Program-made: the position numbers and the translations under genes
Notes under the pieces: model-generated
Databases searched by the model: none
What the model saw: only the letters and a program-made list of their open reading frames with translations
What the model was told of the DNA's origin: nothing
From: Pseudobacteriovorax antillogorgiicola
GTDB lineage: Bacteria; Bdellovibrionota_B; Oligoflexia; Oligoflexales; RGVZ01
Length of the DNA stretch: 64,000 nucleotides
Reading direction: 5' to 3'
Assembly (NCBI GenBank): GCA_945865565.1
Contig: CAMBEK010000002.1
Location: forward strand, 7,901 to 71,900
Shown here: one piece after another, positions 1-13,839 of the stretch
How the letters are laid out: every line of letters begins with the position of its first letter
How positions within the stretch are numbered: the first letter of the stretch is position 1

Positions 1-379
1 TAAGCTTTGTGCGCAGGACTTGGCAAAAAACACCTCCGGATTCTGAAATGACCCGCGCACCTCGACAAGTGGACGCAACAAGCGCTCCTTCGGTCGTTGC
101 CATCGGCACATAGGTAATATGGTCTCCGTCGCTTCGCCGAATGCGGAGGGGTCCTGCTAAGCCGACGGGTGTCGCAACTGATCCAATATAATTCTCAATA
201 TTGCCGCGCATGTCCTCTGCCGACAGAGAGACTCGTCCGATGTGTTCCAGTTTCTTCCCAAAATGAGCTTCAAGAAAGGATAGCCGCTCAATTCGAGCTT
301 CCTCAGTATACAAGCCCTTCCCAGGAACGGAGGCGTTCGCGGCGGTGGAGCGTTTCGGTTTGCGATCATTGATAGCCAT
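1..379 (-). CDS. hmgA: Class I HMG-CoA reductase, N-terminal part (runs off the left edge)
   Basis: Manual translation of the minus strand from ATG at 379 (AAGGA about 6 nt upstream) gives [10 protein letters not shown]...[19 protein letters not shown]...[20 protein letters not shown] with no stop to base 1. ENxIG and PMATTEGxLVAS are class I HMGR motifs. Absent from the supplied ORF track. Confidence 0.9.
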
Positions 380-457
380 GCTTGATCCTTCGCTTCAGAC
401 CGGATCGGTATAATCTTTCGAGCGGATTAGCGTGTCGTTTTGGAAAAATCAAAAGAT

Positions 458-1372
458 TCAGGAGATAAGGACAGGCACGGAGGTCGTTACGGAACTTGCA
501 ATAAGCTGGAAACCGATCATGGTGACCGCAAGCTTCCGGAATCGGACTTCCTCTGTCTCGTAGTATCGCGACAAAAAAACCAAGCTAGCGAAACCAAAAC
601 AAAGACTTGTGAAGATTCCCATGGACAAATCAAGACCGAGAAAGATCACTACATCAACCGTAGTTGCAGCAGCTGAAAGCAAGCCCGCGAGGATCACGGA
701 CCGCTTGAACCCGAAAACCCTTGAATACGAATCTCCCTCGGTTAGATTCTCCTGTGTGACAAATGCCTTTCTTGTAATCTCCAGTGCCGCGCTTGCCAGC
801 AAGATGTAGAGGGCAACAGAACCTACGGTAGCCGCGTATTGAACCGTCAACGGTGAACATGACAGGGTTGCAGTGATCCATCCAACGATCATGACGGTTA
901 CGAATAAATGGCTAAGAGCATAGAACACTGGTCGTTTACTTGAGAGATTTCCAATATTAAAGTCGAAGGACATAAGTGCTGTCCATACAAGTAGAGCGCA
1001 CAAAGCGGCCAATCCTTCAAATCGACCGCTGGACGATGCAAGGGTAAACAGAGTTATCTGCGTCACGCAGAGAATTCCCACAAGCCTGAGGTCGTGCAAC
1101 GTTATGAGGCCTCTTTGCAAGACTCTCTCTGGGTGAGACAGCGCATCCTTTTTAAAATCTTTGTGCTCGTCTATAATCCTAAGTAGCAGAAAAAACAGTA
1201 CAGTCGAGGCGACGCCGCATAGCGTCAAGGCGATTCCGCGAATCGTCCCGAAGTCGAGATGACGCAGCGTTGCATCGACTTTCATGTAAACAGCGCCCGC
1301 AAGCAGTGCGTGCGGAATTGGAAAACGCTCTTTAATCCATGAGAAAATGTTTTGAAATTTCCTTTGATTCAT
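458..1372 (-). CDS. UbiA prenyltransferase-like membrane protein
   Basis: Multi-TM hydrophobic protein with Asp-rich motif RIIDEHKDFKKDALSHPERVLQRG (UbiA-type DxxxD...P-x-R...G) and an N-terminal WIKERFP segment. Confidence 0.75.
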   Translation of the reverse strand: MNQRKFQNIFSWIKERFPIPHALLAGAVYMKVDATLRHLDFGTIRGIALTLCGVASTVLFFLLLRIIDEHKDFKKDALSHPERVLQRGLITLHDLRLVGILCVTQITLFTLASSSGRFEGLAALCALLVWTALMSFDFNIGNLSSKRPVFYALSHLFVTVMIVGWITATLSCSPLTVQYAATVGSVALYILLASAALEITRKAFVTQENLTEGDSYSRVFGFKRSVILAGLLSAAATTVDVVIFLGLDLSMGIFTSLCFGFASLVFLSRYYETEEVRFRKLAVTMIGFQLIASSVTTSVPVLIS

Positions 1373-1405
1373 AATTCGTCCGCTTTAGAAGATGAGGCGA
1401 TCCAC

Positions 1406-2863
1406 TTGTCGGGATCCGGCCCCAGCATCTTTAACTTGTTTCTCGAAAACTCCCGGCGCGACGCAGATCATGTGGCAATTTTCGGAAGGGAAATTTTTCC
1501 CATTACTTACCGTGAACTCATGCTGTTAACCAAATCTTTTGTCGATCAACTCGAAGATCGCAAAATAGTTAGTGGCGAGCCAGTTGCCGTGGCCCTTCGA
1601 CCATCGGCCAAGTTCTTTGCGACTGTTCTTGCGTTGATGAGCCGAGGTCTGACGGTCGTTTTGGTCGATCCGGCGCTCGGTGCAGGAACGACTGCCCGAC
1701 TCCTTCAGAGCATCAACTGCTGGATTATCCTCACGAGCACGCGACTCAAATTTGTGCTTCGATGCTTTCCATCTCTTTGGCGCTTATCTATTCTTAGCCT
1801 AAATCACAGGCCGATTTGCGAGGAAGGCAAAGGCGAGATTATTCCGCTTCCGCCTAAATGCCACGACGCCATCATCTCATTCACGACCGGTAGCACCGGC
1901 CAAGTCAAGATGGTTCGTCGAGATCACCGCGTCTTATACGCGCAACATGGAATTATTCGGCAGTATTGGCCGCCAAAAGTTGGAAGTCGTGAGCTCAATT
2001 TCTTTCCTGTCTTCGGTTTTCACGCGCTTTGCATCGGTTCTACGGTCATCATTCCCAGGGCCAGGCTTGGTGCTAAGGATTTTGCGGATGTCATTGCCAA
2101 GCAGATCCGAGAAGATGGTGTCACTCGCATTGCGGCGCCCCCGTCTGCACTGCGATCGATCTGCGCACATCTCGATCGCAATCAAGGTGCTCCATTTACT
2201 GCCGTGGAACAGTATACGACGGGTGGATCTGTCGTGACTCCTGGTCTATGTCAAGCGATGGCGCGTCATTTCCCGAGTGCTGATGGTCTTGTCGTTTACG
2301 GCAATACCGAGGCTGAGCCGATTACAGTGACTAAAGCTTCCGAAGTGGCGAGTGATGAAAGTGATTTCGGGTATCTACTCGGAAAGCCAATTCCCGAAAT
2401 ATCTTTTTCAATACGCCCCGTTCCTGACCTTGGTGTGTTCAGCCAAGAGCAGCGGGAACCCATCGGTCGCCTTTTCGTCTCTGGACCTCATGCCGCCGGA
2501 GTTGAGATTGATACTGGAGATATCGTCTGTTTCGATAGGGTTGGGCGACTCTTTCTTATCGGTAGGCATTCTGATCTGCTTCGAAACCGAGCTGGTGCCC
2601 TTGTTGCGCCTCTTCCCATTGAAATCAGGCTGTCACGTATTCTGATGGAAGGGGAACTGGCACTGGTGCAAGTGGGCGATCGGTGCACATTATATGTTGA
2701 GGATTCCTCTGTCCGTCATGTCGCGAAAAATAAATCTGAAATTTCCTCGATCCTAGATGAATATTCCCTTTCCGCCAGGGTCAAAGGAATCCGTTCCCTG
2801 CCTAGAGACTCTCGGCAGCGGAGTAAGATTGATCGAGTGGCCCTTCGAGGTAAAAGACGGTGA
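1406..2863 (+). CDS. AMP-binding (ANL superfamily) enzyme, OleC-like acyl-adenylating ligase
   Basis: P-loop SFTTGSTGQVK, YGNTEAEPI, TGD and GRxxD motifs. Start reassigned from 1352 to in-frame TTG at 1406 (GAGG 8 nt upstream), which avoids overlap with the divergent gene. Confidence 0.8.
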   Translation: MSGSGPSIFNLFLENSRRDADHVAIFGREIFPITYRELMLLTKSFVDQLEDRKIVSGEPVAVALRPSAKFFATVLALMSRGLTVVLVDPALGAGTTARLLQSINCWIILTSTRLKFVLRCFPSLWRLSILSLNHRPICEEGKGEIIPLPPKCHDAIISFTTGSTGQVKMVRRDHRVLYAQHGIIRQYWPPKVGSRELNFFPVFGFHALCIGSTVIIPRARLGAKDFADVIAKQIREDGVTRIAAPPSALRSICAHLDRNQGAPFTAVEQYTTGGSVVTPGLCQAMARHFPSADGLVVYGNTEAEPITVTKASEVASDESDFGYLLGKPIPEISFSIRPVPDLGVFSQEQREPIGRLFVSGPHAAGVEIDTGDIVCFDRVGRLFLIGRHSDLLRNRAGALVAPLPIEIRLSRILMEGELALVQVGDRCTLYVEDSSVRHVAKNKSEISSILDEYSLSARVKGIRSLPRDSRQRSKIDRVALRGKRR

Positions 2864-2866
2864 TCA

Positions 2867-3961
2867 TTGGCTAAATTACACGCTGAGATCAGCGAAAAAA
2901 TGTCTTTTAGCGAGATTCGGTACTCCCAAGTCTGGGAGGACGAAGCGATATTACGCGGAGCACTAAACATTATGCCAAATGATGTAGTGCTGTCGATCAC
3001 TAGCGGTGGCTGTAATGCATTAGCTCTACTTTTAATGAAACCGAGACGCTTAATCTGTCTCGACATCAGCCCGGCGCAAAATGCACTTTTGTCTCTTAAA
3101 ATGGCGGCCATTCAACACTGCTCTTACCAGGCATACCTGGCGATCATGGGTGTCACCGCCGGAGAAAGGCACGAAATCTACTCCGAGCTAAGGCCGAATC
3201 TTTCTCTTGAGGCGCGGCAGTTTTTCGACTCCCACAAGGCAGATATCGACGCCGGACTAATCCACATTGGGCGACTTGAACGATTCATGGCCGGGTTTCG
3301 GCAGGATCCTTTGGTGTCGGCTATTACCCCTTATCTACGAACGCTGACCGGGATCAAATCACTAGATGCCCAGCGCACCGTTGTCTCACAGATCACTGAC
3401 GAGAATTTTAAGAAGGTATTCAAAAAATACTTCTCGCAGGAAAATATAAGCCGGTTGGGTCGGGATCCCGCGCAATTCGCCTTCGTGGTTTCTACCGATG
3501 TTGGTGAACATTTTTGGCAATGCTTCCTGCGTGCTATGAACGAAACGCAATTTTCTACGAATTTCTACATGCAATACTTTCTCCTTGGTGGCTACGAAAA
3601 TCTAGATTACGGACCATTACTCCTTCGTCGCGAATCATTCGATCAACTGAAGCGACTTTGTCATCGGGTCGAACTCGTGACGGACTCTCTTGAGAACTTC
3701 TCGGAAGATAAGAGGATGCTGGGTATTACCAAGGTCAATTTATCAAATGTGTTTGAATACAAATCGGCGGCAAGCAGTCAGGATCTGTTTTTTGAGCTTA
3801 GCCAAAGGCTGCCAGACAATGCGCGCATGGCATTTTGGAACATGCTCGTTGATCGAGCCCCTCAAGGCATCGATTCTCTTGTGAATCTGCCTCCTAAGGC
3901 GAACTGGCGCGACCGATTTTGCCTTTATCAATCTTTCAAATGCTACGAGGTCCGTCGGTGA
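2867..3961 (+). CDS. DUF3419 / BtaA-like SAM-dependent 3-amino-3-carboxypropyl transferase
   Basis: RYSQVWED, VLSITSGGCNALALL and LDISPAQNALLSLK motifs typical of DUF3419/BtaA proteins. Confidence 0.8.
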   Translation: MAKLHAEISEKMSFSEIRYSQVWEDEAILRGALNIMPNDVVLSITSGGCNALALLLMKPRRLICLDISPAQNALLSLKMAAIQHCSYQAYLAIMGVTAGERHEIYSELRPNLSLEARQFFDSHKADIDAGLIHIGRLERFMAGFRQDPLVSAITPYLRTLTGIKSLDAQRTVVSQITDENFKKVFKKYFSQENISRLGRDPAQFAFVVSTDVGEHFWQCFLRAMNETQFSTNFYMQYFLLGGYENLDYGPLLLRRESFDQLKRLCHRVELVTDSLENFSEDKRMLGITKVNLSNVFEYKSAASSQDLFFELSQRLPDNARMAFWNMLVDRAPQGIDSLVNLPPKANWRDRFCLYQSFKCYEVRR

Positions 3962-6270
3962 AATTCCTTGGTCGGCACTACACGGTGATGTCCTTACTGT
4001 TCGTTATTGCGACGATAGCGGCCATTCCAGGTGCCTTGCAGACGTTTCCGCCGGACAACTCTTTGAGAATCTGGTTTCTTGAAACAGAGCCTCTGCTGGA
4101 GAACTATCGACAGTTCCATGAGCACTTCGGAAATGACGAGGTAGTAGTGGTAGCAATCGATTTGGGGAAACCTAGGGGTCAGACCGGCCTAACCGATGCC
4201 GAGCTGCAGATGTTCAGGAAAACCATTACCGACATCGAGTCCATCCCGGGAATCGATCAGGTTGTCTCAGCTCTGACTTTGTATGGCGTACACAACGACG
4301 ACGGCGTCATTAGCCTGCAGAGTTTTTTTGAGCGCGATGCGGTCTCGGGTGTTGATTTTCAGAAGCTTGTCCAATCGCCAAGCTTCCGAGGTAGGCTAAT
4401 AGATGCTCAAGGCCAGGTAATGCTCTGGTTGGTCAAACTCAAGGCGATGGCTGATATTGATTTGAAGCGCGATGGCATAGTTGGAGCCGTTCACGGCGCA
4501 TTGGATAAATCGTTGGGTTCTTTTGCACATCCCACGGGTGGAATTAGTGTTGTTTATGCGGCTCTTAATACCCTTACTCAACGTGATTTTGGTATCTTTA
4601 TTGGCATCAGCTACCTCCTCATCTATCTATGCCTCTTCTTCGTCTTGAGGAGCGTATGGTTGGTCGTTGCAATTGCATCGGCTCTTTTTTGTGCGTCGGC
4701 TATCTCCCTCGGGATATATGGATATCTCGGTAACAAAATCAATATGGTGACGATTGCCGTACCCAGTCTGATCTTTATTCTCGGACTTATAACTCTGATC
4801 CATGTACCGAATGCGGTTGCTGTCGCCAAGGAAGATGGCGACGGCGAAGATGCAGTGGTAAAAGGGATAAAAGCCGTCCTTGGCCCCTGTATCTTGACGT
4901 CGCTGACAACAGTCTTCGGGTTTCTCGCGTTTCTTTCCGCGCCAATGACGATTCTCAGGCAGTTCGGAGCTTATACAGCCCTAGGGGTCTTCCTCGTCTT
5001 GCCAATCGGACTAGCGTTCTTGGCTGTGGCTTTCCGAAAGGAGAAAGTCCGTCTAGATCTGCGCACGCCTGCATTCGTGCGGAGTATGACGTCCTGGATA
5101 GTGAAATTCCAAGTAAAACACTCAAAATGGTTGCTGGTTCCGTTTATCGTTGTAACCGTCTTGGCGATTTGGTTCGCGCGGTCAGTTTCTATCGATACGT
5201 ATACGCTCGGTTACTTGCCTGAGAACAGTCGGGCAGTAATGGATCACGCCTCAATTCAGAAATTGTGGGGAGACTACATGCCCCTCGAGTTCATAGTCGA
5301 GACCGCAAACGCTCAAAAGGTTACATCCGCTGTGGTATTGAGCGCACAGCGAGAGTTTGTCAGGAGAGCCAGCGAAATCGATGAAATTCGGACAGGGTAC
5401 TCAATCGTAGACGTATACGAATCGATGCTGACGACATTACGCGGTACTGGGTTTGGAAAGGAGATCTCGCAGGAGGAAGTTACGCAGTTAGATACTCTAT
5501 TGGAAGCCCAAGAACTGAGGTGGCACGGTACTGAAGCCCAGTTAAGAAAGAATTTTTTACGCCATGTTACTGACGAAGAACGCCACGTCGGGCGCTTGAC
5601 TTTGGTCGCAAAAATGATGAGCGCCAAAGAGGTCAAGGATGTACTGAGGAAACTTGATGGCATTGGCAAGGAAGCCTTTGGGACGATTGGGTCGATCAAA
5701 CCTGCTGGCTATGTACCTTTGTATGTGAAGATCATCGATTATGTCATGGAATCACAGGTCCAGAGCTTTTTTATCGCGCTAATTCCTATCTTCCTTTCAA
5801 TGCTGATTTGGTTGCGCTCTTTACGCCTTGCGATCATAAGTCTCATCCCAAATTTGTTCCCGATTGCGATGATATTTGGTGCCATGGGCTTTTTTGGAAT
5901 TGACCTCGACATTGCCACGGCGACCATTGCAGCTATCGTATTAGGTGTATCCGTAGATGACACCATTCATTTTTTGCACTATTGGCAGCAGGCGGAACGG
6001 CAGGGCATGGAATGGGAGAAAGCTTTGGAGTACACAATGCCGCGCGCAGGGTCGGCGGTAATAATCACGAGTATTATTCTGCTGGTTGGGTATCCAGTTT
6101 TAATGCTTGGTAGTGTCAAAACAGTCATTTACTTTGGCGCATTGATGACATTCGCTGCCTTTACAGGTGTATTAGCTGATCTCTTCCTCCTGCCTCCGCT
6201 GCTAAAATTTGGGTACCCGAATTGTAGGCGGATCACGTCCGAACATGCTCACCACTCACGTCCGGCTTAG
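3958..6270 (+). CDS. MMPL/RND-family lipid transporter
   Basis: Two repeats of a periplasmic loop plus TM bundle; motifs LTSLTTVFGF and IVLGVSVDDTIHF. Probable GTG start at 3958 overlaps the upstream TGA (GTGA). Confidence 0.85.
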   Translation: MKFLGRHYTVMSLLFVIATIAAIPGALQTFPPDNSLRIWFLETEPLLENYRQFHEHFGNDEVVVVAIDLGKPRGQTGLTDAELQMFRKTITDIESIPGIDQVVSALTLYGVHNDDGVISLQSFFERDAVSGVDFQKLVQSPSFRGRLIDAQGQVMLWLVKLKAMADIDLKRDGIVGAVHGALDKSLGSFAHPTGGISVVYAALNTLTQRDFGIFIGISYLLIYLCLFFVLRSVWLVVAIASALFCASAISLGIYGYLGNKINMVTIAVPSLIFILGLITLIHVPNAVAVAKEDGDGEDAVVKGIKAVLGPCILTSLTTVFGFLAFLSAPMTILRQFGAYTALGVFLVLPIGLAFLAVAFRKEKVRLDLRTPAFVRSMTSWIVKFQVKHSKWLLVPFIVVTVLAIWFARSVSIDTYTLGYLPENSRAVMDHASIQKLWGDYMPLEFIVETANAQKVTSAVVLSAQREFVRRASEIDEIRTGYSIVDVYESMLTTLRGTGFGKEISQEEVTQLDTLLEAQELRWHGTEAQLRKNFLRHVTDEERHVGRLTLVAKMMSAKEVKDVLRKLDGIGKEAFGTIGSIKPAGYVPLYVKIIDYVMESQVQSFFIALIPIFLSMLIWLRSLRLAIISLIPNLFPIAMIFGAMGFFGIDLDIATATIAAIVLGVSVDDTIHFLHYWQQAERQGMEWEKALEYTMPRAGSAVIITSIILLVGYPVLMLGSVKTVIYFGALMTFAAFTGVLADLFLLPPLLKFGYPNCRRITSEHAHHSRPA

Positions 6271-6446: not shown

Positions 6447-6518
6447 GGATATTGAGCCGAAGACGAAGAATCCTTTCTTATCCCGTCATCCGGAGCCGAA
6501 GGCGAAGGATACTTGCTT
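6447..6518 (+). repeat. Two REP-like palindromic repeat units
   Basis: TGAGCCGAAGACGAAGAATCCTTTC and CCCGTCATCCGGAGCCGAAGGCGAAGGATAC; same consensus as copies at about 37.3, 49.55 and 63.2 kb. Lies between convergent genes. Confidence 0.6.
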
Positions 6519-6604
6519 CAAATTTTTGAAAAAACCGTAACCGCCATTTTTTCCTGAGAGAAATCGTATGCCAGTAGGCGTGACTATGGCCGACGGATGA
6601 CGGA

Positions 6605-7852
6605 TTAATTTTTATCCAAAGGCAATTGTTCGAAGAATATTGTGGCCGACCTGTCGGACTTGATCTGCCTGGACAGGGCTCCGCTCAGGCGAAATTCGTG
6701 CATGGACTTTAAGTAATCACCGGTTGTGGTGATCGTGATGTTCGACTTTCTACTAGTTCCTAAAATTTGTTTTTCTGAAGATTCATCCATTCCACGCTCA
6801 AGCTGTGCGACTTCTCTTACGTACCAGGTAAATTTCCCAGGCTTTAGGAAATTCAGGACGGTTGATTGTGCCCCTGAGACCCGATGGACTGTTTCTTTTC
6901 TCTGGCCATTTCCTTCCTGCTTTACAACAACTTCAAATTCACTAAGTCCAAGCTGACCTTGTTTGGATAATTCCCATGAAACGGGAATTCTCGTTGGGAA
7001 ATGAGCTCCCGCATAAATGAAGTCTTCAGGCGGGCTGGTGAGAGTAATTTGGTTTTGCCTGGTGGCCTCTCGGGCATGAATGTAGAATCTTCTCACTCCA
7101 GATTTGGCCTTCCAATCGAGAGAGGCTACTTGAAGCAGCCAAGCACCGGGCCGGAAAACCGGAATGGTCTGAACTGAGTTCTTTGTGATGCTGACTGGTG
7201 GTCCACGTTCCTCCCCCTCTGGCCACATTAATATTTGCACCTCAGGATCGGCATCCTTGTTCAAAATTTCCCAAGACACAGGAAGCATCGCAGGCAGTTC
7301 GTTAAGGTGGATGTGATTGTCCCTGCCGGGAAGATTCACTTTGATCCTGTTTTTACCCTTACCTGGTATATCCGCAAAAGCTTCACGGAAATTGGCATTC
7401 ATGATTTTTCCGAAAACAGATGATACGACAGCGTTTGATTCAGAATCCAATTTGTAGTTCTTGAATACCTGCCGGTTGATTTTCGCGCTCCGGATCAAGT
7501 CGCGTTCCAGTCGAAAGACCATTGGTGTGTTGATGTCGGCTTCGAGGCTTTTTCCAGGCCGGTCGGGGAATCCGTTCTGGCTATCGATTCTCAGGATGAG
7601 TTGCGATGCCTCGCCAACCTGGACGAGGGTCTTTTCGGGAATTGGCACACCCTCCCGCACATGCAGCCATCTGCCAGAGGAGGGCGTCCAATAAAGCACA
7701 GTACCGGACACGCTTTGCGGCGTGAAAGTCAAAAATGCCGGAGCGGCCGAGGCACGAAAGCCAAAGAATAAAAAAACAGCGAACCCGAAAAAATTGACGG
7801 AGAACGCCGCCATGGAGAGTATCGAGTAGCGTTGGGTTGATCCAGAACTCAT
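6605..7852 (-). CDS. Exported hypothetical protein, possibly FecR-like N-terminal domain followed by Ig/FN3-like beta domains
   Basis: Hydrophobic N-terminal segment, then SGTVLYW...GVPIPEKTLVQVGEASQLIL resembling the FecR start. ATG at 7852 overlaps the upstream stop (ATGA). Confidence 0.5.
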   Translation of the reverse strand: MSSGSTQRYSILSMAAFSVNFFGFAVFLFFGFRASAAPAFLTFTPQSVSGTVLYWTPSSGRWLHVREGVPIPEKTLVQVGEASQLILRIDSQNGFPDRPGKSLEADINTPMVFRLERDLIRSAKINRQVFKNYKLDSESNAVVSSVFGKIMNANFREAFADIPGKGKNRIKVNLPGRDNHIHLNELPAMLPVSWEILNKDADPEVQILMWPEGEERGPPVSITKNSVQTIPVFRPGAWLLQVASLDWKAKSGVRRFYIHAREATRQNQITLTSPPEDFIYAGAHFPTRIPVSWELSKQGQLGLSEFEVVVKQEGNGQRKETVHRVSGAQSTVLNFLKPGKFTWYVREVAQLERGMDESSEKQILGTSRKSNITITTTGDYLKSMHEFRLSGALSRQIKSDRSATIFFEQLPLDKN

Positions 7853-9660
7853 GCAGTCCTTTGCATGACGATACTGCAAACATCGTCGTCTGGTGGTGCG
7901 CCATCAAGGTGCCTCACCCAGTCGGAAAGAATCTTTTCCAAAAACTGTTTTGGTTGCAGAGAACTGGCGTCCCGGCAGGCTCGGGCGATCCGCCTCTGAC
8001 CGAACTGAGTGCCGTCAATCCTTGCTCCTTCCGATAATCCATCGGTGTAAAGAAATAGTGAATTTCCTTTCGCGAACGGAACCCGCTGCTGTCCGATTTC
8101 AAATTCCGAAGCCAATCCAATAACGTGGGAGGCAGGGGCCACAACCGTGACGTCTACATCGTCTCCCGGGGTTATCATCATGGCCGGTGGATGCCCTGCA
8201 TTATAGATGACAACGTCTCCATCCTTCTTTGACCAGGTTGCCACCTGCATGGTGGCATGCCATCGTTTGTGCCCAAGACTCATGATGAGGTGGTTGCAGC
8301 CTCGGATGAATTCCTCAACTGGGAAAGGACTTCCGCTGGACTTGTTGCGATGGAACTCGAACATGCCAGCGATAATTGCCGTAAACATTGCGGACCCGGC
8401 CCCGTGGCCGGACACATCAGCAATCGCGACGACCGATTCGCCGGCAAGGCTATCATAGTGGTAGCTGTACCAGTCACCGGCGGCCTCAGCGGCAGGCGTA
8501 TAGGAGGTATCGATTTGAACGTGGGATTCAGTCGCCAGCGCACCATGGGGCATAAAATTATCTTGAATGCTTTTGGCGACAGCAAGTTCCGCTTCGAGTC
8601 TGATTTTACCTTTTTGCTCTTCATGCAGTCGGTTGATTGCGTCATCACGTCGCTGTAGGTCAATTGCCATCTGCTCAAAGGCAAGATTTAATACCTCCGT
8701 CTCCCCGATTCCCTTTACCAGCGGCTTCGCAGAGAAGTCGCCTGCGCTGATCCTGCGCGCGACACGAACTAGGTCCGAAATGGGGTCGACTACGGGACGT
8801 AAAGAGAAAATCACGATAGCAACCGTCAATAATAATGTGATTACGGCAATGGTCGCATACTGGTTGCGCAGCTGATAAACAGGCGCCAGAGCACTTCGCT
8901 TCAACGTCTCGCTAAACAAGACGATGTTCGTCGCTGGAATTTGAAAAAAAACACCAAGCATTTGTTTGCCGTTTGGGTCCGTATATTCAAGCTGACCCTG
9001 GCGGAATTGGTTGTTGATAAACCTCTGAACGAGCCTGCGTCTTGCAAAATTTGCCGATGTTATATCGCGAGATGTTGAAACCAGGAGTTGCCCTTCGGTT
9101 GTGACGGCATAGATCACTCCTGGCCCGTCTGCTGTCGCCTCCGCACTAAATAGCCGCATCAAATTGACCGGCCAAAAGAAATAAAATCTACCCTCGCTTC
9201 CGGTCTTCTTTCCGAGGACGTCTATGGCCAAGCGCTGATCGACAAGTTGAGCCACAAAAGTACGGCCCTTGTAGGTCAATAGGTTGTATTGCGAGCGGAG
9301 GGTGTTTCCCTCCAGGTTAAGTGATGATGATTCAATGGAATCGCCTGTTCCGGGGCCATAGACAATCGAGAACCTGTTAGTCGCTTCACTGCGGAGGATC
9401 ATTCCTGGATCGGATCTGGTCTCTGCGTTGTTTACGCCGGTTGCATCCAGAATCAAGCGTGAAATCTGGTTGCTTCTGATCTCCGCACTCATAAAAATAA
9501 GGGCCCAAAAATCACGTCTCTTGTTTTCCGACAAAATCGAGAGTGCAAGGAATCCCAAAGTTGCTGTCGCCAGCATAAAACCAAGAATAACCACGCAGGT
9601 GATCCAGCGCGATATTGTGATTTGCGATGCAATCCAGCGATGAAGTACGCTTATGTTCAA
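7849..9660 (-). CDS. Membrane-bound SpoIIE/PP2C phosphatase with extracellular sensor and HAMP domain
   Basis: Two TM segments, HAMP, then GDWY, ADVSGHG, NAGHPP, YTDGLSE and terminal DD motifs of the RsbU/SpoIIE family. Confidence 0.9.
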   Translation of the reverse strand: MNISVLHRWIASQITISRWITCVVILGFMLATATLGFLALSILSENKRRDFWALIFMSAEIRSNQISRLILDATGVNNAETRSDPGMILRSEATNRFSIVYGPGTGDSIESSSLNLEGNTLRSQYNLLTYKGRTFVAQLVDQRLAIDVLGKKTGSEGRFYFFWPVNLMRLFSAEATADGPGVIYAVTTEGQLLVSTSRDITSANFARRRLVQRFINNQFRQGQLEYTDPNGKQMLGVFFQIPATNIVLFSETLKRSALAPVYQLRNQYATIAVITLLLTVAIVIFSLRPVVDPISDLVRVARRISAGDFSAKPLVKGIGETEVLNLAFEQMAIDLQRRDDAINRLHEEQKGKIRLEAELAVAKSIQDNFMPHGALATESHVQIDTSYTPAAEAAGDWYSYHYDSLAGESVVAIADVSGHGAGSAMFTAIIAGMFEFHRNKSSGSPFPVEEFIRGCNHLIMSLGHKRWHATMQVATWSKKDGDVVIYNAGHPPAMMITPGDDVDVTVVAPASHVIGLASEFEIGQQRVPFAKGNSLFLYTDGLSEGARIDGTQFGQRRIARACRDASSLQPKQFLEKILSDWVRHLDGAPPDDDVCSIVMQRTA

Positions 9661-10451
9661 CGCCTCACCACCGGTCTGTTGTTGAGGGAGGTGATCTCAA
9701 TTTCAATCCTCCGGTTCTTTTTGGAAGCCTCAGAATTCAGGGAACCATCAGGCTGCCTGACCGGAAATAATCCCCGGGTATCTGCCAGACCAGTTGCCCT
9801 TAGCCTGTTTGGTCTCGCCCCCTGTTTAATCAGTTCAGAAACAACTGAAGCGGCACGCGATGCTGAAAAAATCCACGCGTCAATATCACCACTTGAATCA
9901 GTTGATTTACGCTTGGAAAAATCCCCTGGGGCTGTGTGCCCCGTGACCGTCAGGGTAAATTCGTTCCCAAAAGGCTCGATTGTGTGCACAACCTCTTTGA
10001 GTAGGATCTTGGCTGGAGCAGACAGTTTAATTGTCGCTTTCTCGAACATGACCTCAGTCGGAAGTATAATGACTACCGAGTGGCCCGGATGGGATATTTC
10101 TGGACTTGCCAGGCCAATTTGGGCAGCCGTTGTCGTTAATCGCTTTTTCAGGAGGCCTCCTGCATTATCTCTGATTTTTGAGTCCGACTGAAATTTCTCC
10201 AGGGATTCCACCATCGAATCGATTGATTCTCCGGTATTCAAATCTTTTCCGAGAATCTCAAACGCACGCGCTTTTCGTGCGTCACCCGTCAATCCTTCTT
10301 GATTTTCTGAGCGACGCAGCGAATTTTTTTGCGCGATGAAGTAAACTCCGCCGAGCGAAAAAATCACAACCGAAATAATAAATGGAATCGTCCTTCGCAT
10401 GGGCCTTCGGTTCGAATCCTTATTTTCGTTTTGGGATTTCACTTGATGCAC
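9657..10451 (-). CDS. OmpA/MotB-family peptidoglycan-binding membrane protein
   Basis: Single TM, then MFEKATIKL, VTGHT, SASRAASV and KNRRIEIEI OmpA-like C-domain motifs. Confidence 0.8.
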   Translation of the reverse strand: MHQVKSQNENKDSNRRPMRRTIPFIISVVIFSLGGVYFIAQKNSLRRSENQEGLTGDARKARAFEILGKDLNTGESIDSMVESLEKFQSDSKIRDNAGGLLKKRLTTTAAQIGLASPEISHPGHSVVIILPTEVMFEKATIKLSAPAKILLKEVVHTIEPFGNEFTLTVTGHTAPGDFSKRKSTDSSGDIDAWIFSASRAASVVSELIKQGARPNRLRATGLADTRGLFPVRQPDGSLNSEASKKNRRIEIEITSLNNRPVVRR

Positions 10452-10918
10452 CCAAAGTATTTTTCTTCGATTCCGTCAAATTCCATGGGTTTTAGGCACT
10501 TGGGGCAATTCTGTTCAGGGGATTTGGCCTTCCCGGGTCCGGATCTGAGGGCATCCTCGCGGGTTAATAAGTTGTTGAATGACCCGTCACATCGGGCGCA
10601 GAAATAGGCTGCATAGAAACTCTCGACGATAACGTTTCGCTCGCCAATAAATCCGGGGAAGAGGTTCATCTGATTTACAATCCGGAGGGGACATTTGGTG
10701 AAGTAAATGGTCACATCAGCCGGTAAGCCTTTCATAAATGATACCCAGTTCTGAAGTCCCATTGAGTTGATCAATTCAACTTTATCGAAGTCAAATTCCA
10801 ACTTGATTTTGCCATTGAGGTTGATCGAACCATAGGCGGCATTTTCATCAATTTTTCCAGCAAACGCGATGCAGATCCGGTCTGCTCTTGTGGTCGTGGT
10901 CAAGTTTATGCTGGACAT
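10439..10918 (-). CDS. STAS-like anti-anti-sigma protein with C-terminal CxxC...CxxC
   Basis: STAS core FDFDKVELINSMGLQNW with a putative phosphoacceptor Ser; CARC and CPKC Cys pairs. Confidence 0.75.
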   Translation of the reverse strand: MSSINLTTTTRADRICIAFAGKIDENAAYGSINLNGKIKLEFDFDKVELINSMGLQNWVSFMKGLPADVTIYFTKCPLRIVNQMNLFPGFIGERNVIVESFYAAYFCARCDGSFNNLLTREDALRSGPGKAKSPEQNCPKCLKPMEFDGIEEKYFGCIK

Positions 10919-10921
10919 ACG

Positions 10922-11869
10922 TCAGTTCCTCGGCTCAAAAAAATGAATGGAGGGGACCCGGGTCATGAACGAGCGGTTTGAACGTTCAATTGGAATGCTG
11001 AAAATCACTTCAGTAGAAGTGCCGTGGTGTATGTTGAAAATCAGTTGGGCTGCTTCATGAAGGACCATGTAAAGTCCCACCCCGGCACCTCCATGGTCGC
11101 CCTTGATCTGATTTGATGACCTGGCGTCTGCACGCCTCCAGTTTTCTATGACCATCGATGGCGTCAATCGCCCCAGATGGTCCTGAATTCGGACTGCAAT
11201 TTTATGGGCGTCGTGCCTTATCTCCAGATCAACCAATTGACTGGCAAACCTTTGATCAGTCGGAATCGGCGTTTGCACATTCCTTGGCAACTCGATATCT
11301 GTCCCCCGCCGTGCATCGTAGATGGCGTTGGTGAGAAGCTCCCAGACACAAGTTGCAACGTAGTTTTCAAAGTCGGAGTAAGTGTCCAAGGTTCCGGCTA
11401 CGATCCGCGCCTGGTCGACAGAATGACCGATCATGCTGCCATCCCAGTGCTGTGCAGTGAAGAGGAGGTCTGTCCCATGACACATCAGAGTCCAGGGATC
11501 CATGCCTGGGGCCGTTAACACCCTAAGGGGTATGATCTCGTGAGGAAGAACCAGTTCATTGCGCCCCAGAGCATGATTGCTGCCCGGAGTAGTAAATATG
11601 TTATTGATCAAATCAGAGCGAGACCCTCCAAACAGTAGCACTAACGGCGTGTCGAGGGATTTTTCTCGCAGGGAGGAAATCTTCTTTGGGCCGAGGGAAA
11701 AATCAGCCACCACGACATGGGATCCAGGGCGATCCAAGAGTAATTGGGTTGGGTCTGCTTCGCACACCTCGTATGGTATCCCTGTTGCCGCCAATTCTTT
11801 TTCAATAGGCCGCCAGACAGAGCTATCGTCTGCCCAAAGAATCAGTGATTTTACTTCAGGTTTAGCCAT
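10922..11869 (-). CDS. GHKL/HATPase_c-like protein, putative anti-sigma factor/Ser kinase with degenerate receiver-like N-terminus
   Basis: N-box-like WELLTNAIYD, IQDHLG and G-rich GGAGVGLY; no obvious His phosphoacceptor helix. Confidence 0.6.
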   Translation of the reverse strand: MAKPEVKSLILWADDSSVWRPIEKELAATGIPYEVCEADPTQLLLDRPGSHVVVADFSLGPKKISSLREKSLDTPLVLLFGGSRSDLINNIFTTPGSNHALGRNELVLPHEIIPLRVLTAPGMDPWTLMCHGTDLLFTAQHWDGSMIGHSVDQARIVAGTLDTYSDFENYVATCVWELLTNAIYDARRGTDIELPRNVQTPIPTDQRFASQLVDLEIRHDAHKIAVRIQDHLGRLTPSMVIENWRRADARSSNQIKGDHGGAGVGLYMVLHEAAQLIFNIHHGTSTEVIFSIPIERSNRSFMTRVPSIHFFEPRN

Positions 11870-11889
11870 CCGGTGATCGCGTTCCCTTC

Positions 11890-13839
11890 TTAACGTTTTG
11901 GCTGAGATGAGTAGGCAGCAACGAAAAACTTTTCACCCTTGCTTGCAAACGGAATGACGACGACATCAGACCACATCTTCTCAAGTTCGCTCGGCCTAAA
12001 ATTGGACTCCGCTGTCGCTGCCTTGATTTCGTATTCTTCTGTTCCCGTTGCCACAGCAATAAACTGTGATTTTCCGAAAATCTGGTCCGCGATTTCGACC
12101 GCAACCTGATTTCTCGCTTGTTCATCCTTCTGAGCGACAGATCGTGACGCTCCGGTGACGCGGGGCGCCAATTGGATCATTAGCTCCGGGCGACAGACAA
12201 ACATGAATTGACCCTCAACATGGGGTCCTTTCATTGGTATGCGGACCGCCATCATTCCGCTGATTGGAATCCTTTTGATACCGATTCCAATTTCGTAGGA
12301 TGGCGGCAAGTCGCCTGTGTAGTATTCCATAACTTCGTTAATGGATTGCCGCAGAATTCCGGCCAATCGCTGTGATTTTGGTGATAGGCTCGTGTCGTTA
12401 GTATCAAGGAAAAAGCATTCATCCAGCGTTGGGAGTCTTGGGACAGATTCTTTGAGAAATCGCCAACGGACCAAAGGCGCTTCAATCTTTGATTGGTAAT
12501 TTGAACGGTATTGATACGTAGTGGAATCACTTTTTACCAAATAGCCCCTGTCGATCTTAATCGAGGAAGTGGTGGTGAACATCTTGCTCAGGAGTTCATG
12601 TTTAAACTCCAACGTTAGGCCCCGCGTAAGAGGGCGTTGTGATTCGATGATCACTCCATCTTCGTCCACCAGACTGACTTTGAAATCGAGGCGGGCATTA
12701 AGGGGCCCATCATGAAATCCCTCAGGAGGAGTCTCGTCGTTGAGCCTCTCCATAATTGATGCGACGTCCAGACTTGAATCAGTAATCGCACTCGCCACGG
12801 TGCCAACAGTCATCGGCGGGTGAATGTAGCGCAGGTTCCCAAAGTCAGTCGCTGCTGGGTTTCGACTCGCAACAAGCAGTCGTGTAAGGCCGGTTATGAG
12901 ATTTTGTCCAAGTGATTTGACGAGGGCCGCAGAGAGTTTAGCGTCCGGGGTTTCGTGTAAATAGAGGCAAAGTGGAGCGCTGTCCTTCGCCTCGCATTTC
13001 ATGATCATACTTTCAAAGTCAGGTGCGTGTTCCGGTCTTAAACCAGCCTTTTCAAGGGCGGGTCGGAGCTTGTCAAATACATCAAATACGGGGTGAAAAA
13101 TGATCACTCGATTTCGATTGCTGTCGCTTTTTTTAAAGCCATGAATTCGAGCCGTGTGCTGCACGAGCTTTTCGAACCCTTCATTGCTGCCTTTGACCTT
13201 TTCCATCGAGAATGATGCGAAAATTCGGGATCCGATTGTGAAGGTTGATCCGCCTATGAGCGTCGCCCTGACAAAGTCGCCGTGAAACGATCCATCGATG
13301 TAGTAGTCGGCCCGGTGATCGATATTGAAGTCCGTGCGAAAAATTATGTTGGTATCGTTCGCCGCGACCAGATTCATGCTGAACCGGCTGCTGATCCTGT
13401 TGTCGACACCTGCCCGGAGCGGGTCGAACGCAAAAGGTGACGCGATCAGGCGTGACGCGAGAATCTCCTCGATTTTGGCGTGAAATGCCTTTGGTTGGAT
13501 GTCCCCGATAAAAATCGCTTCAAACTTTTTTCCAGCAAGGGGCACGAGGGCTTCCCTCGTCCGCGATTCGACGCAAACTATTAACGGGATACGCCGGATC
13601 GGCTCTTCCTTTGCGAGAAGGTCATGCACCATGACGGCATTTCCATCCCGCAGAACAGACTCAACAATCATGACGTGTGGCAGGGATCTTTTTAGTTCGG
13701 TCATTGCGGCGTTAACACTGTCAGTTCTCACACAAGGGATTCCGCATTTTTCAAATGCGGCCGCAAGGATGTCTGCCTTCTCCGTGTTGCGCATGCAAAG
13801 GAGGGCTTTATGTTTGGTAAGTTCTCGGGCAATTCGCAT
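11890..13839 (-). CDS. Multidomain signalling protein: degenerate receiver domain(s) and CheX-like C-terminus
   Basis: N-terminal REC-like fold (PHVMIVE...IPLIV); C-terminal ISGMMAV...EIADQIFG resembles the CheX/CheC E-xx-N-xx-xG motif in degenerate form. Confidence 0.55.
   Translation of the reverse strand: MRIARELTKHKALLCMRNTEKADILAAAFEKCGIPCVRTDSVNAAMTELKRSLPHVMIVESVLRDGNAVMVHDLLAKEEPIRRIPLIVCVESRTREALVPLAGKKFEAIFIGDIQPKAFHAKIEEILASRLIASPFAFDPLRAGVDNRISSRFSMNLVAANDTNIIFRTDFNIDHRADYYIDGSFHGDFVRATLIGGSTFTIGSRIFASFSMEKVKGSNEGFEKLVQHTARIHGFKKSDSNRNRVIIFHPVFDVFDKLRPALEKAGLRPEHAPDFESMIMKCEAKDSAPLCLYLHETPDAKLSAALVKSLGQNLITGLTRLLVASRNPAATDFGNLRYIHPPMTVGTVASAITDSSLDVASIMERLNDETPPEGFHDGPLNARLDFKVSLVDEDGVIIESQRPLTRGLTLEFKHELLSKMFTTTSSIKIDRGYLVKSDSTTYQYRSNYQSKIEAPLVRWRFLKESVPRLPTLDECFFLDTNDTSLSPKSQRLAGILRQSINEVMEYYTGDLPPSYEIGIGIKRIPISGMMAVRIPMKGPHVEGQFMFVCRPELMIQLAPRVTGASRSVAQKDEQARNQVAVEIADQIFGKSQFIAVATGTEEYEIKAATAESNFRPSELEKMWSDVVVIPFASKGEKFFVAAYSSQPKR

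Follow-up and report, generated by a model that had tools for sequence, protein, structure and literature searches.

We analysed a 64,000-nucleotide (nt) stretch of the Pseudobacteriovorax antillogorgiicola genome (GCA_945865565.1; here G000), covering positions 7901-71900 of contig CAMBEK010000002.1 (C2:7901-71900) and referred to throughout as the window; C denotes contigs of this genome, L denotes other loci and G other genomes. An initial annotation made from the sequence had described five adjacent genes at window 1-6270 as a candidate isoprenoid or amino-lipid biosynthetic cluster. All five open reading frames (ORFs) were recovered at the same coordinates, and domain searches together with a structure model bore out their identities as 3-hydroxy-3-methylglutaryl-CoA (HMG-CoA) reductase (HMGR), UbiA-like, ANL, BtaA-like and MMPL proteins. 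The genes are arranged in two divergent operons, a minus-strand one with HMGR and the UbiA-like gene and a plus-strand one with ANL-DUF3419-RND. The base composition of this region was unremarkable. Only the N-terminal 126 amino acids (aa) of the HMGR gene lie in the window (window 2-379, minus strand; PF00368, E=1.7e-26). The gene is cut by the window edge, and its full length (C2:5895-8279, of which 2 kb lie left of the window) encodes a 794-aa HMGR-APH fusion. The UbiA-like gene (window 458-1372, minus strand) encodes a polytopic protein of 304 aa that was identified from its AlphaFold model with Foldseek. On the plus strand are the ANL (AMP-binding) enzyme (503-aa ORF, window 1352-2863; PF00501, E=3.3e-30), the DUF3419 (BtaA-like) protein (window 2867-3961; PF11899, E=2.9e-56) and an RND transporter of the HAE3/HpnN/MMPL type (783-aa ORF, window 3919-6270) assigned with Pfam and NCBIfam.

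The cluster had been expected to run past the left edge of the window, and the contig carries about 7.6 kb more of it with four further genes, all on the minus strand. Following HMGR-APH are an Rph-like phosphoenolpyruvate (PEP)-utilising phosphotransferase (846 aa, C2:3395-5935), which matches the PEP-utilising kinase predicted to lie there, a tandem GNAT protein (366-387 aa, C2:2314-3414/3477), a LolA-like protein (LolA_like, PF17131; C2:1546-2313) and a 402-aa exported protein with a signal peptide and a C-terminal Phe (C2:331-1539). The cassette therefore comprises nine genes over about 13.8 kb (C2:331-14170). The last 149 nt of contig C1 are the first 149 nt of C2. In a 93%-identical metagenomic relative (L026), what follows the 402-aa protein is a set of unrelated genes on the opposite strand, so the cassette ends at this protein. 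The cassette operons of the same relative are tight, with genes overlapping or abutting. In its listed form (TTG at 1352) the ANL ORF shares 21 nt with the start of the UbiA-like gene, which is read in the other direction from an ATG at 1372 on the minus strand. The true ANL start is probably the in-frame TTG at 1406, which is preceded by GAGG; this start would leave about 33 nt between the two start codons, and both promoters would then have to lie within coding sequence. The RND gene likely starts at 3958, with a 4-nt overlap with the DUF3419 stop as in the 93%-identical relative.

The full 794-aa ORF matched PF00368 (HMG-CoA_red) with 328 bits and PF01636 (APH) with 47.6 bits. Its score against TIGR00533 was 243.3 bits, under the equivalog cut-off of 441.8, and the solved class I HMGR 6hr7 was matched at E=9e-61. 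The kinase half is of the APH/choline-kinase type, with a weak match to PF01633 and no useful sequence relatives in the PDB. For a survey of active-site residues, 122 fusion proteins were aligned with one archaeal and one plant class I HMGR. Positions are given in what we take to be human HMGR numbering, which was checked against the aligned archaeal and plant chains. The catalytic positions (E559, K691, D767 and H866) were invariant in all 122 fusions, this protein included, and the equivalents of N755, R590, D690 and K692 were invariant or nearly so. The contacts to the HMG carboxylate, S684 and K735, were altered across the whole family: the S684 equivalent was E or D in 122 of 122 fusions (D in this protein), and the K735 equivalent was not conserved, being Q, H or N in most. 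The H752 equivalent was N in 119 of the 122, and the DAMGMN motif read DAAGQN in most fusions and SAAGQN in this protein. The kinase motifs HNDxxxRN and DWE were invariant in the family. Judged from these residues, the reductase domain appears to be active as a thioester reductase and to have a changed pocket for the acyl group.

Most of the fusions carry an N-terminal extension of 100-150 aa with a weak PilZ match (for example L022:3453-6203 in genome G035), which suggests cyclic di-GMP (c-di-GMP) control of most members of the family. The 794-aa fusion of P. antillogorgiicola is the shortest of the set and is without the PilZ-like extension. With the fusion as query we also found free-standing class-I-like HMGR homologues in metagenome-assembled genomes of Nitrospinota, Acidobacteriota and Omnitrophota (L003-L008). 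These have pocket changes of their own (R590 to I, D690 to E, K692 to R and K735 to H) and are apparently another non-canonical HMGR-like family, so they were unusable as canonical controls.

The 304-aa membrane protein had no Pfam match and a weak match to an NCBIfam 'prenyltransferase' model (E=8.5e-13). Its AlphaFold (AF2) model (pLDDT 94.5) was matched by Foldseek to Methanocaldococcus jannaschii digeranylgeranylglyceryl phosphate (DGGGP) synthase (6m31/7bpu) and Aeropyrum UbiA (ApUbiA, 4od4) at TM 0.64-0.73, and a wider list that included 6m31, 7bpu, 4od4, 4tq3/4 and UBIAD1 spanned TM 0.5-0.73. A profile of the UbiA-like family matched only 6m31 in the PDB (E=1.7e-8). Going by its predicted structure, the protein has the UbiA fold of about nine transmembrane helices with a central cavity, and archaeal DGGGP synthase is its closest solved relative. 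The first Asp-rich motif is intact (DEHKDxxxD...PxRxLxxG); D68xxxD72xxxD76 was invariant in 65 sequences and aligned with the 6m31 motif. The second Asp-rich motif (DxxDxxxD) is replaced in the family by ExxRK plus an acidic PEEE loop, which reads QEN...EGD in this protein. The family comprised 2174 clusters at 50% identity. Some orthologues were recognised by Pfam: PF01040 scored 44.9 bits on the L030 protein against a cut-off of 34.2, the L033 protein fell below the cut-off, and the L052 orthologue has a recorded Pfam UbiA match. Within the phylum a UbiA-like match was present in 48 of 131 genomes, many of them in ORFs of 750-870 aa.

The ANL enzyme matched PF00501 with 105.6 bits, and its best NCBIfam match was the 'fatty acid CoA ligase family' PRK09274 (177.6 bits vs a cut-off of 478). 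The initial annotation had labelled this enzyme OleC-like. The ANL family assignment stood, and an assignment to OleC was not supported: the OleC score was weak (75 bits vs a cut-off of 900) and the cassette has no oleA, oleB or oleD. The translation contains the motifs TGSTGQVK, YGNTE, TGD and GRHSD (A3, A5, A7 and A8) and the A10 Lys and is without the A4 Asp, and the best PDB relatives reached only E ~1e-9. Its motifs are fatty-acid-ligase-like and not of the amino-acid type, and the enzyme is remote from every solved one. The DUF3419 protein matched PF11899 with 191.7 bits over 312 residues and had no NCBIfam match and no PDB relative. BtaA, the S-adenosylmethionine (SAM):diacylglycerol 3-amino-3-carboxypropyl transferase, matches DUF3419 strongly (PMC6642084). 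By analogy with it, the cassette protein could place a homoserine-type ether on a lipid hydroxyl. No BtaB-type methyltransferase was found among the nine cassette genes, to which the search for one was confined.

The Rph-like protein combines a PPDK_N ATP-grasp domain with a PEP-utilizers (mobile His) domain and is of the Rph/PigC/RedH type. Its best PDB matches were the Listeria rifampin phosphotransferase structures 5fbs/5hv1, an Rph_4th domain was recorded on an 86%-identical orthologue, and the phospho-histidine motif TLSHSAIIARELGIP was read from the translation. Its score against the Rph equivalog NF041857 was 221.8 bits vs a cut-off of 999. The GNAT-like protein is a tandem GNAT (AF2 pLDDT 87.9) that Foldseek matched to 7q3a, 1ozp and 5kgh (E 4e-11 to 3e-9, TM 0.5-0.58). 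Its fold matches include acyl-CoA enzymes (MshD, MAB_4324) and aminoacyl-tRNA enzymes (Sbb17, MprF, FemX), and an R-x-x-G-L motif is present in the C-terminal half. Among the export components, the RND protein matched TIGR00921 HAE3 (E=5.4e-35, 120.6 bits vs a cut-off of 351.9) and HpnN (E=7e-20, 70.6 bits vs 751.9), and it exceeded the Pfam cut-offs for MMPL (32.9 vs 20.5), Sterol-sensing (36.7 vs 22.3) and Patched. The 402-aa exported protein had no detectable family. Gammaproteobacterial cassettes encode proteins of 427-431 aa at the corresponding position, and it showed no similarity to these.

Queried against 5.8 billion proteins, the fusion returned 3050 matches, plain reductases included. 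The best 120 of the 3050 were all full-length reductase-kinase fusions (E < 1e-148), and the named sources among the matches listed include Pseudomonadales, Marinobacter, Endozoicomonas, HdN1, Myxococcota, Desulfobacterales, Bradymonadaceae and Vicinamibacterales. The initial annotation had made its proposal depend on co-conservation, and the gene set does recur across phyla: the block was found in Gammaproteobacteria, Acidobacteriota, Myxococcota, Desulfobacterota, Bacteroidota and the phylum of P. antillogorgiicola itself, with proteins 30-40% identical. Cassette neighbourhoods were seen in gamma proteobacterium HdN1, a 7.8-Mb metagenomic contig, Myxococcota, Desulfobacterales, Vicinamibacterales, Atopomonas sediminilitoris, Endozoicomonas, Hymenobacter fodinae and twelve loci of the same phylum, and an MMPL gene was present in nearly every version. 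In G035, which belongs to another family, the whole set is syntenic, with DUF3419 and ANL diverging from UbiA-like, HMGR-APH, Rph-like and GNAT, then RND. In A. sediminilitoris ten genes form a translationally coupled operon with 4-nt overlaps in the order LolA-like, 427-aa protein, MMPL, UbiA, HMGR-APH, Rph-like, GNAT, ANL, CDP-OH_P_transf and 183-aa protein.

Two variants of the cassette were distinguished. Variant A has a free-standing ANL gene followed by DUF3419 and RND and occurs in P. antillogorgiicola, G035, Vicinamibacterales, Myxococcota and Hymenobacter. In variant B, DUF3419 is missing and two other proteins are present, a CDP-alcohol phosphotransferase and a small membrane protein that is CarS-like (CTP-transferase family); fusion to ANL is frequent. 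The hosts of variant B are HdN1, Atopomonas, Endozoicomonas, the 7.8-Mb contig and Desulfobacterales. The fusion architectures of variant B were ANL-CDP-OH_P_transf, ANL-CarS-like and ANL-CDP-OH_P_transf-CarS-like, and Desulfobacterales have a minimal two-gene system made up of HMGR-APH and ANL-CDP-OH_PT-CarS. The cytidylyltransferase or phytol-kinase-like gene that had been predicted upstream thus has a counterpart in the CarS-like domain of sister cassettes, and in this genome no cassette-type CarS or CDP-OH_PT was found. Genome G033, like many others in the phylum, has ANL-UbiA fusions. G010 and G033 share a conserved protein of 490-560 aa with no known family.

The fusion was not found in any of the six other genomes of the same genus nor in about 15 further genomes of the same family; other families of the order have it again, with 36-37% identity. 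The same-genus genome G003 keeps the PP2C operon that neighbours the cassette without the cassette beside it, and its other flank matches a different contig of P. antillogorgiicola (C37), so no clean insertion boundary could be drawn. Comparison of these genomes points to gain or loss of the cassette as a block within the genus.

We are highly confident that the genes form a genuine, functionally linked and uncharacterised lipid-type pathway outside the mevalonate route. With less assurance, but as the reading we favour on balance, we propose that the cassette makes and exports a cell-envelope lipid and does not supply mevalonate. In the proposed sequence of reactions the ANL enzyme would activate a carboxylic acid, probably to a CoA thioester, the HMGR-like domain would take the thioester to a primary alcohol in a four-electron reduction, and the fused APH-type kinase would phosphorylate the resulting alcohol. 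The Rph-like His-phosphotransferase would then add a further phosphate to give a diphosphate, or phosphorylate another hydroxyl, and the DGGGP-synthase-like UbiA-fold enzyme would couple the phosphate-activated group to a membrane acceptor, probably via an ether bond. DUF3419 would move a 3-amino-3-carboxypropyl group from SAM onto a free hydroxyl, and the tandem GNAT would acylate an amine or hydroxyl, the two together giving an acylated amino-acid-type head. Export to the outer membrane would then fall to three components, the HAE3-type RND pump, the periplasmic LolA-like protein and the 402-aa exported protein. An ether-linked or alkylated lipid with a 3-amino-3-carboxypropyl modification, close to the product initially suggested, is a reasonable guess.

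The minimal Desulfobacterales system uses each domain once, which suggests the order acid, thioester, alcohol, phosphate, CDP-alcohol and phosphodiester, with ANL forming the thioester, the HMGR-like domain the alcohol, APH the phosphate, the CarS-like domain the CDP-alcohol and CDP-OH_PT the phosphodiester. As the CarS-like protein and CDP-alcohol phosphotransferase replace DUF3419 in sister cassettes, the product there would have a phosphodiester head group and not a homoserine-type ether. The reaction order as a whole is tentative, and we think it somewhat doubtful that every step falls in the place given here. A strict requirement for APH and Rph in series was rejected, since sister cassettes have Rph without APH, and the series was kept only as the likeliest order for this variant.

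Several observations weigh against the proposed pathway. H. fodinae, which has the DUF3419 variant, keeps the kinase with no reductase domain in the cluster, so the data do not force the reaction order. A sister cassette without reductase or APH (G010, G036, G107 and G109) consists of ANL-UbiA, Rph-like and tandem GNAT; at L054-L057 it includes an AurF-like diiron oxygenase, and in G010 (L055, G010:C49), a genome of the same family as P. antillogorgiicola, also DUF3419. The Rph-like enzyme therefore need not follow APH, and ANL need not feed a reductase. Because reductase-less and APH-less versions exist, the core of the system is ANL, UbiA-like, Rph-like and tandem GNAT, with the reductase-kinase as a frequent added module. 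At some fusion loci (L035, L041 and L043) no other cassette gene lies within 10 kb. At the level of chemistry, a plain fatty acyl substrate would fit poorly with the acidic residue that is conserved in the reductase pocket. The UbiA-like protein has a degenerate second Asp-rich motif, and we know of no precedent for a non-allylic alkyl diphosphate as a UbiA donor.

The most direct alternative is the one favoured by the initial annotation, isoprenoid supply and prenylation, in which HMGR would make mevalonate for chains that the UbiA enzyme attaches. It draws on the reductase having a class I HMGR fold and every catalytic residue, on the UbiA-fold enzyme encoded by the adjoining gene, and on the dependence of this genome on the mevalonate pathway, as the operon is present and IspH was not found in the genome. 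That operon, however, is separate from the cassette (C9:47100-53700) and encodes MVK, diphosphomevalonate decarboxylase (MVD), a second GHMP kinase, a class II HMGR (360 bits vs a cut-off of 260) and type 2 IPP isomerase (IDI-2), a complete lower pathway, so the genome already has a housekeeping reductase. None of the mevalonate genes expected upstream in the cluster were there; no MVK, PMK, MVD, IDI or prenyl-diphosphate synthase was found among the cassette genes. The family-wide change in the HMG-carboxylate contacts and the score under the TIGR00533 cut-off also count against mevalonate synthesis, as do the Hymenobacter version without any reductase and the methylerythritol phosphate (MEP)-pathway gammaproteobacteria HdN1 and A. 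sediminilitoris, which carry the fusion and have IspH without MVD. We consider this explanation very unlikely; from the sequences compared, the cassette most likely does not supply mevalonate and its HMGR-like domain works outside the mevalonate pathway. The prokaryotic HMG-CoA synthase model TIGR01835 had no match in this genome, of which about 10% is missing; this could be due to genome incompleteness, a divergent synthase or the initial search filter. The IDI-2 ORF on C9 is extended at its N-terminus by about 130 aa, and the MqnE ORF adjoining the operon is 694 aa long with about 300 extra C-terminal residues.

The remaining explanations keep the cassette outside the mevalonate pathway or deny that it is a pathway. 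A Kennedy-type route, in which an acid-derived phosphorylated alcohol would become a new polar head on diacylglycerol or CDP-diacylglycerol-type lipids via membrane transferases, would suit the resemblance of the kinase domain to choline/ethanolamine kinases (weak for PF01633), the fusion of CarS-like and CDP-alcohol phosphotransferase domains to ANL in sister cassettes, and a pocket that keeps D690, K691, K692 and R590 and gains an acidic residue, as would fit a small polar or amino-bearing acyl group. CarS-type enzymes, though, act on lipid phosphates and are not known to use soluble alcohol phosphates, no clear role would be left for the UbiA-like and Rph-like enzymes of this genome, and neither of the cassette-type head-group enzymes was found in this genome, so that we regard the route as unlikely. 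A prenylated aromatic or meroterpenoid metabolite seems to us less likely still. Here UbiA would prenylate an aromatic acid with the cell's polyprenyl diphosphate, ANL would activate the acid, the Rph-like protein would phosphorylate a phenolic hydroxyl, and GNAT and DUF3419 would decorate the product. Precedents come from classical UbiA enzymes, which prenylate 4-hydroxybenzoate, and from phenylphosphate synthase, an enzyme of the PEP-synthase type; ANL-UbiA fusions are common, and an AurF-like diiron oxygenase, of the family known for p-aminobenzoate N-oxygenation, is encoded in the sister cassettes and in G033. Against this, the closest solved UbiA relative is the O-alkylating DGGGP synthase and not an aromatic prenyltransferase, the BtaA-family, CarS-like and CDP-OH_PT partners are lipid-assembly enzymes, and the dedicated set of RND, LolA-like and exported proteins points to an envelope lipid. 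Chance neighbours, or a loose clustering of lipid-related genes without a shared pathway, would account for the isolated fusion genes at L035, L041 and L043 in the phylum. Against this, gene order, overlapping frames and fusions between components recur in at least six phyla, and the cassette appears to move as a block within the genus. We consider chance clustering extremely improbable.

The envelope-lipid reading that we prefer can be extended to a more specific and speculative form, in which the cassette would be an isoprenoid-independent route to an activated alkyl donor that enters an ether lipid with a homoserine-type or phosphodiester head, exported to the outer membrane and possibly under PilZ/c-di-GMP control in many hosts. 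Taken whole this is a long shot, but if true it would give bacteria a counterpart to the assembly of ether lipids in archaea, built from different precursors. More generally, the cassette would point to a class of bacterial envelope lipid not yet tied to genes, or unseen, in lipidomics, and the alternation of BtaA-like with CarS-like and CDP-alcohol transferase suggests phosphorus-free and phosphorus-containing forms of one lipid. It would also mean that the HMG-CoA reductase fold, the statin target, has been recruited outside the mevalonate pathway. The fusion genes are now named 'HMG-CoA reductase' or 'phosphotransferase', which matters for inferring isoprenoid pathways from genomes. The scale is considerable, with about 2,200 UbiA-like clusters at 50% identity and at least 120 full-length reductase-kinase fusions, six named lineages included, and the cultured carriers A. 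sediminilitoris, Endozoicomonas sp. YOMI1, gamma proteobacterium HdN1 and H. fodinae make the question experimentally tractable.

The DNA to the right of the cassette (window 6605-13839, minus strand) contains an operon of FecR-like, HAMP-PP2C/SpoIIE, OmpA/MotB-like, small, GHKL-like and 649-aa proteins (PP2C partner-switching). The operon is syntenic in the 93%-identical relative and in G003 whether or not the cassette is present, and is therefore a neighbour and not part of the cassette. A dispersed family of short repeats flanks the cassette on both sides. Its matches are about 40-330 nt long and occur at dozens of sites, frequently at the ends of contigs or grouped in tandem-like clusters, with copies at window 6469-6580, between the RND stop and the FecR-like gene, and at C1:439700-440344, in the tail of C1 that joins C2. 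The repeat family probably caused the break between C1 and C2.

A full-text literature search found no description of this gene combination, and a paper on the lipocone mentioned UbiA and HMGR only in unrelated contexts (PMC12419801). Individual components can nevertheless be set beside known systems. The cassette reductase shares fold and family with class I HMG-CoA reductase (EC 1.1.1.34; Methanothermococcus thermolithotrophicus 6hr7, Arabidopsis 8ecg, human 1dq8) and keeps the catalytic Glu/Lys/Asp/His, N755, R590 and the GxxGGGT motif. Because the catalytic residues are kept, it very probably carries out a four-electron, NAD(P)H-dependent reduction of a thioester. It differs from class I HMGR in being fused to an APH-type kinase and in lying outside any mevalonate context. 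The Rph-like protein has a three-part architecture in common with rifampin phosphotransferase Rph and with PigC/RedH, without a PEP/pyruvate TIM barrel, but the cut-offs for Rph, PigC and RedH are far above its score, and its context is biosynthetic as compared to resistance for Rph or prodiginine synthesis for PigC/RedH. As in the lipid-exporting RND systems (HpnN for hopanoids, mycobacterial MmpL), a transporter of the HAE3/HpnN/MMPL type lies inside a lipid-biosynthesis locus, here with a LolA-like partner; unlike HpnN and MmpL, the cassette RND protein reached none of the subfamily cut-offs. Membership of the BtaA family links the DUF3419 protein to the BtaA/BtaB pathway for the betaine lipid diacylglyceryl trimethylhomoserine (DGTS). 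The cassette differs from that pathway in having no BtaB, in the set of enzymes that surrounds DUF3419, and in that sister cassettes replace DUF3419 with CDP-OH_PT and a CarS-like protein.

The logic proposed here, from alcohol to monophosphate to diphosphate to UbiA-type transfer, is that of alcohol salvage into UbiA-type enzymes. In plants VTE5 (phytol kinase) and VTE6 (phytyl-phosphate kinase) feed VTE2/ChlG, and the engineered isopentenol utilisation pathway uses choline kinase, so that an enzyme of the choline-kinase fold carries out the first phosphorylation, as proposed for the cassette. Unlike these routes, the putative cassette pathway would generate the alcohol in situ from a thioester via the HMGR-like domain, and the second kinase would be of the PEP-synthase type. 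In archaeal ether-lipid assembly, the cassette ANL, reductase-kinase, Rph-like and GNAT enzymes have no counterpart, and the archaeal geranylgeranylglyceryl phosphate (GGGP) synthase, glycerol-1-phosphate (G1P) dehydrogenase and geranylgeranyl diphosphate (GGPP) synthase are not in the cassette. DGGGP synthase is the best fold match and the only PDB sequence match of the UbiA-like protein, although the two are only about 12% identical and the second Asp-rich motif is replaced in the cassette protein. The next two enzyme types of the archaeal pathway, CarS and the CDP-alcohol phosphatidyltransferases, are those represented by the CarS-like and CDP-OH_P_transf proteins of the sister cassettes.

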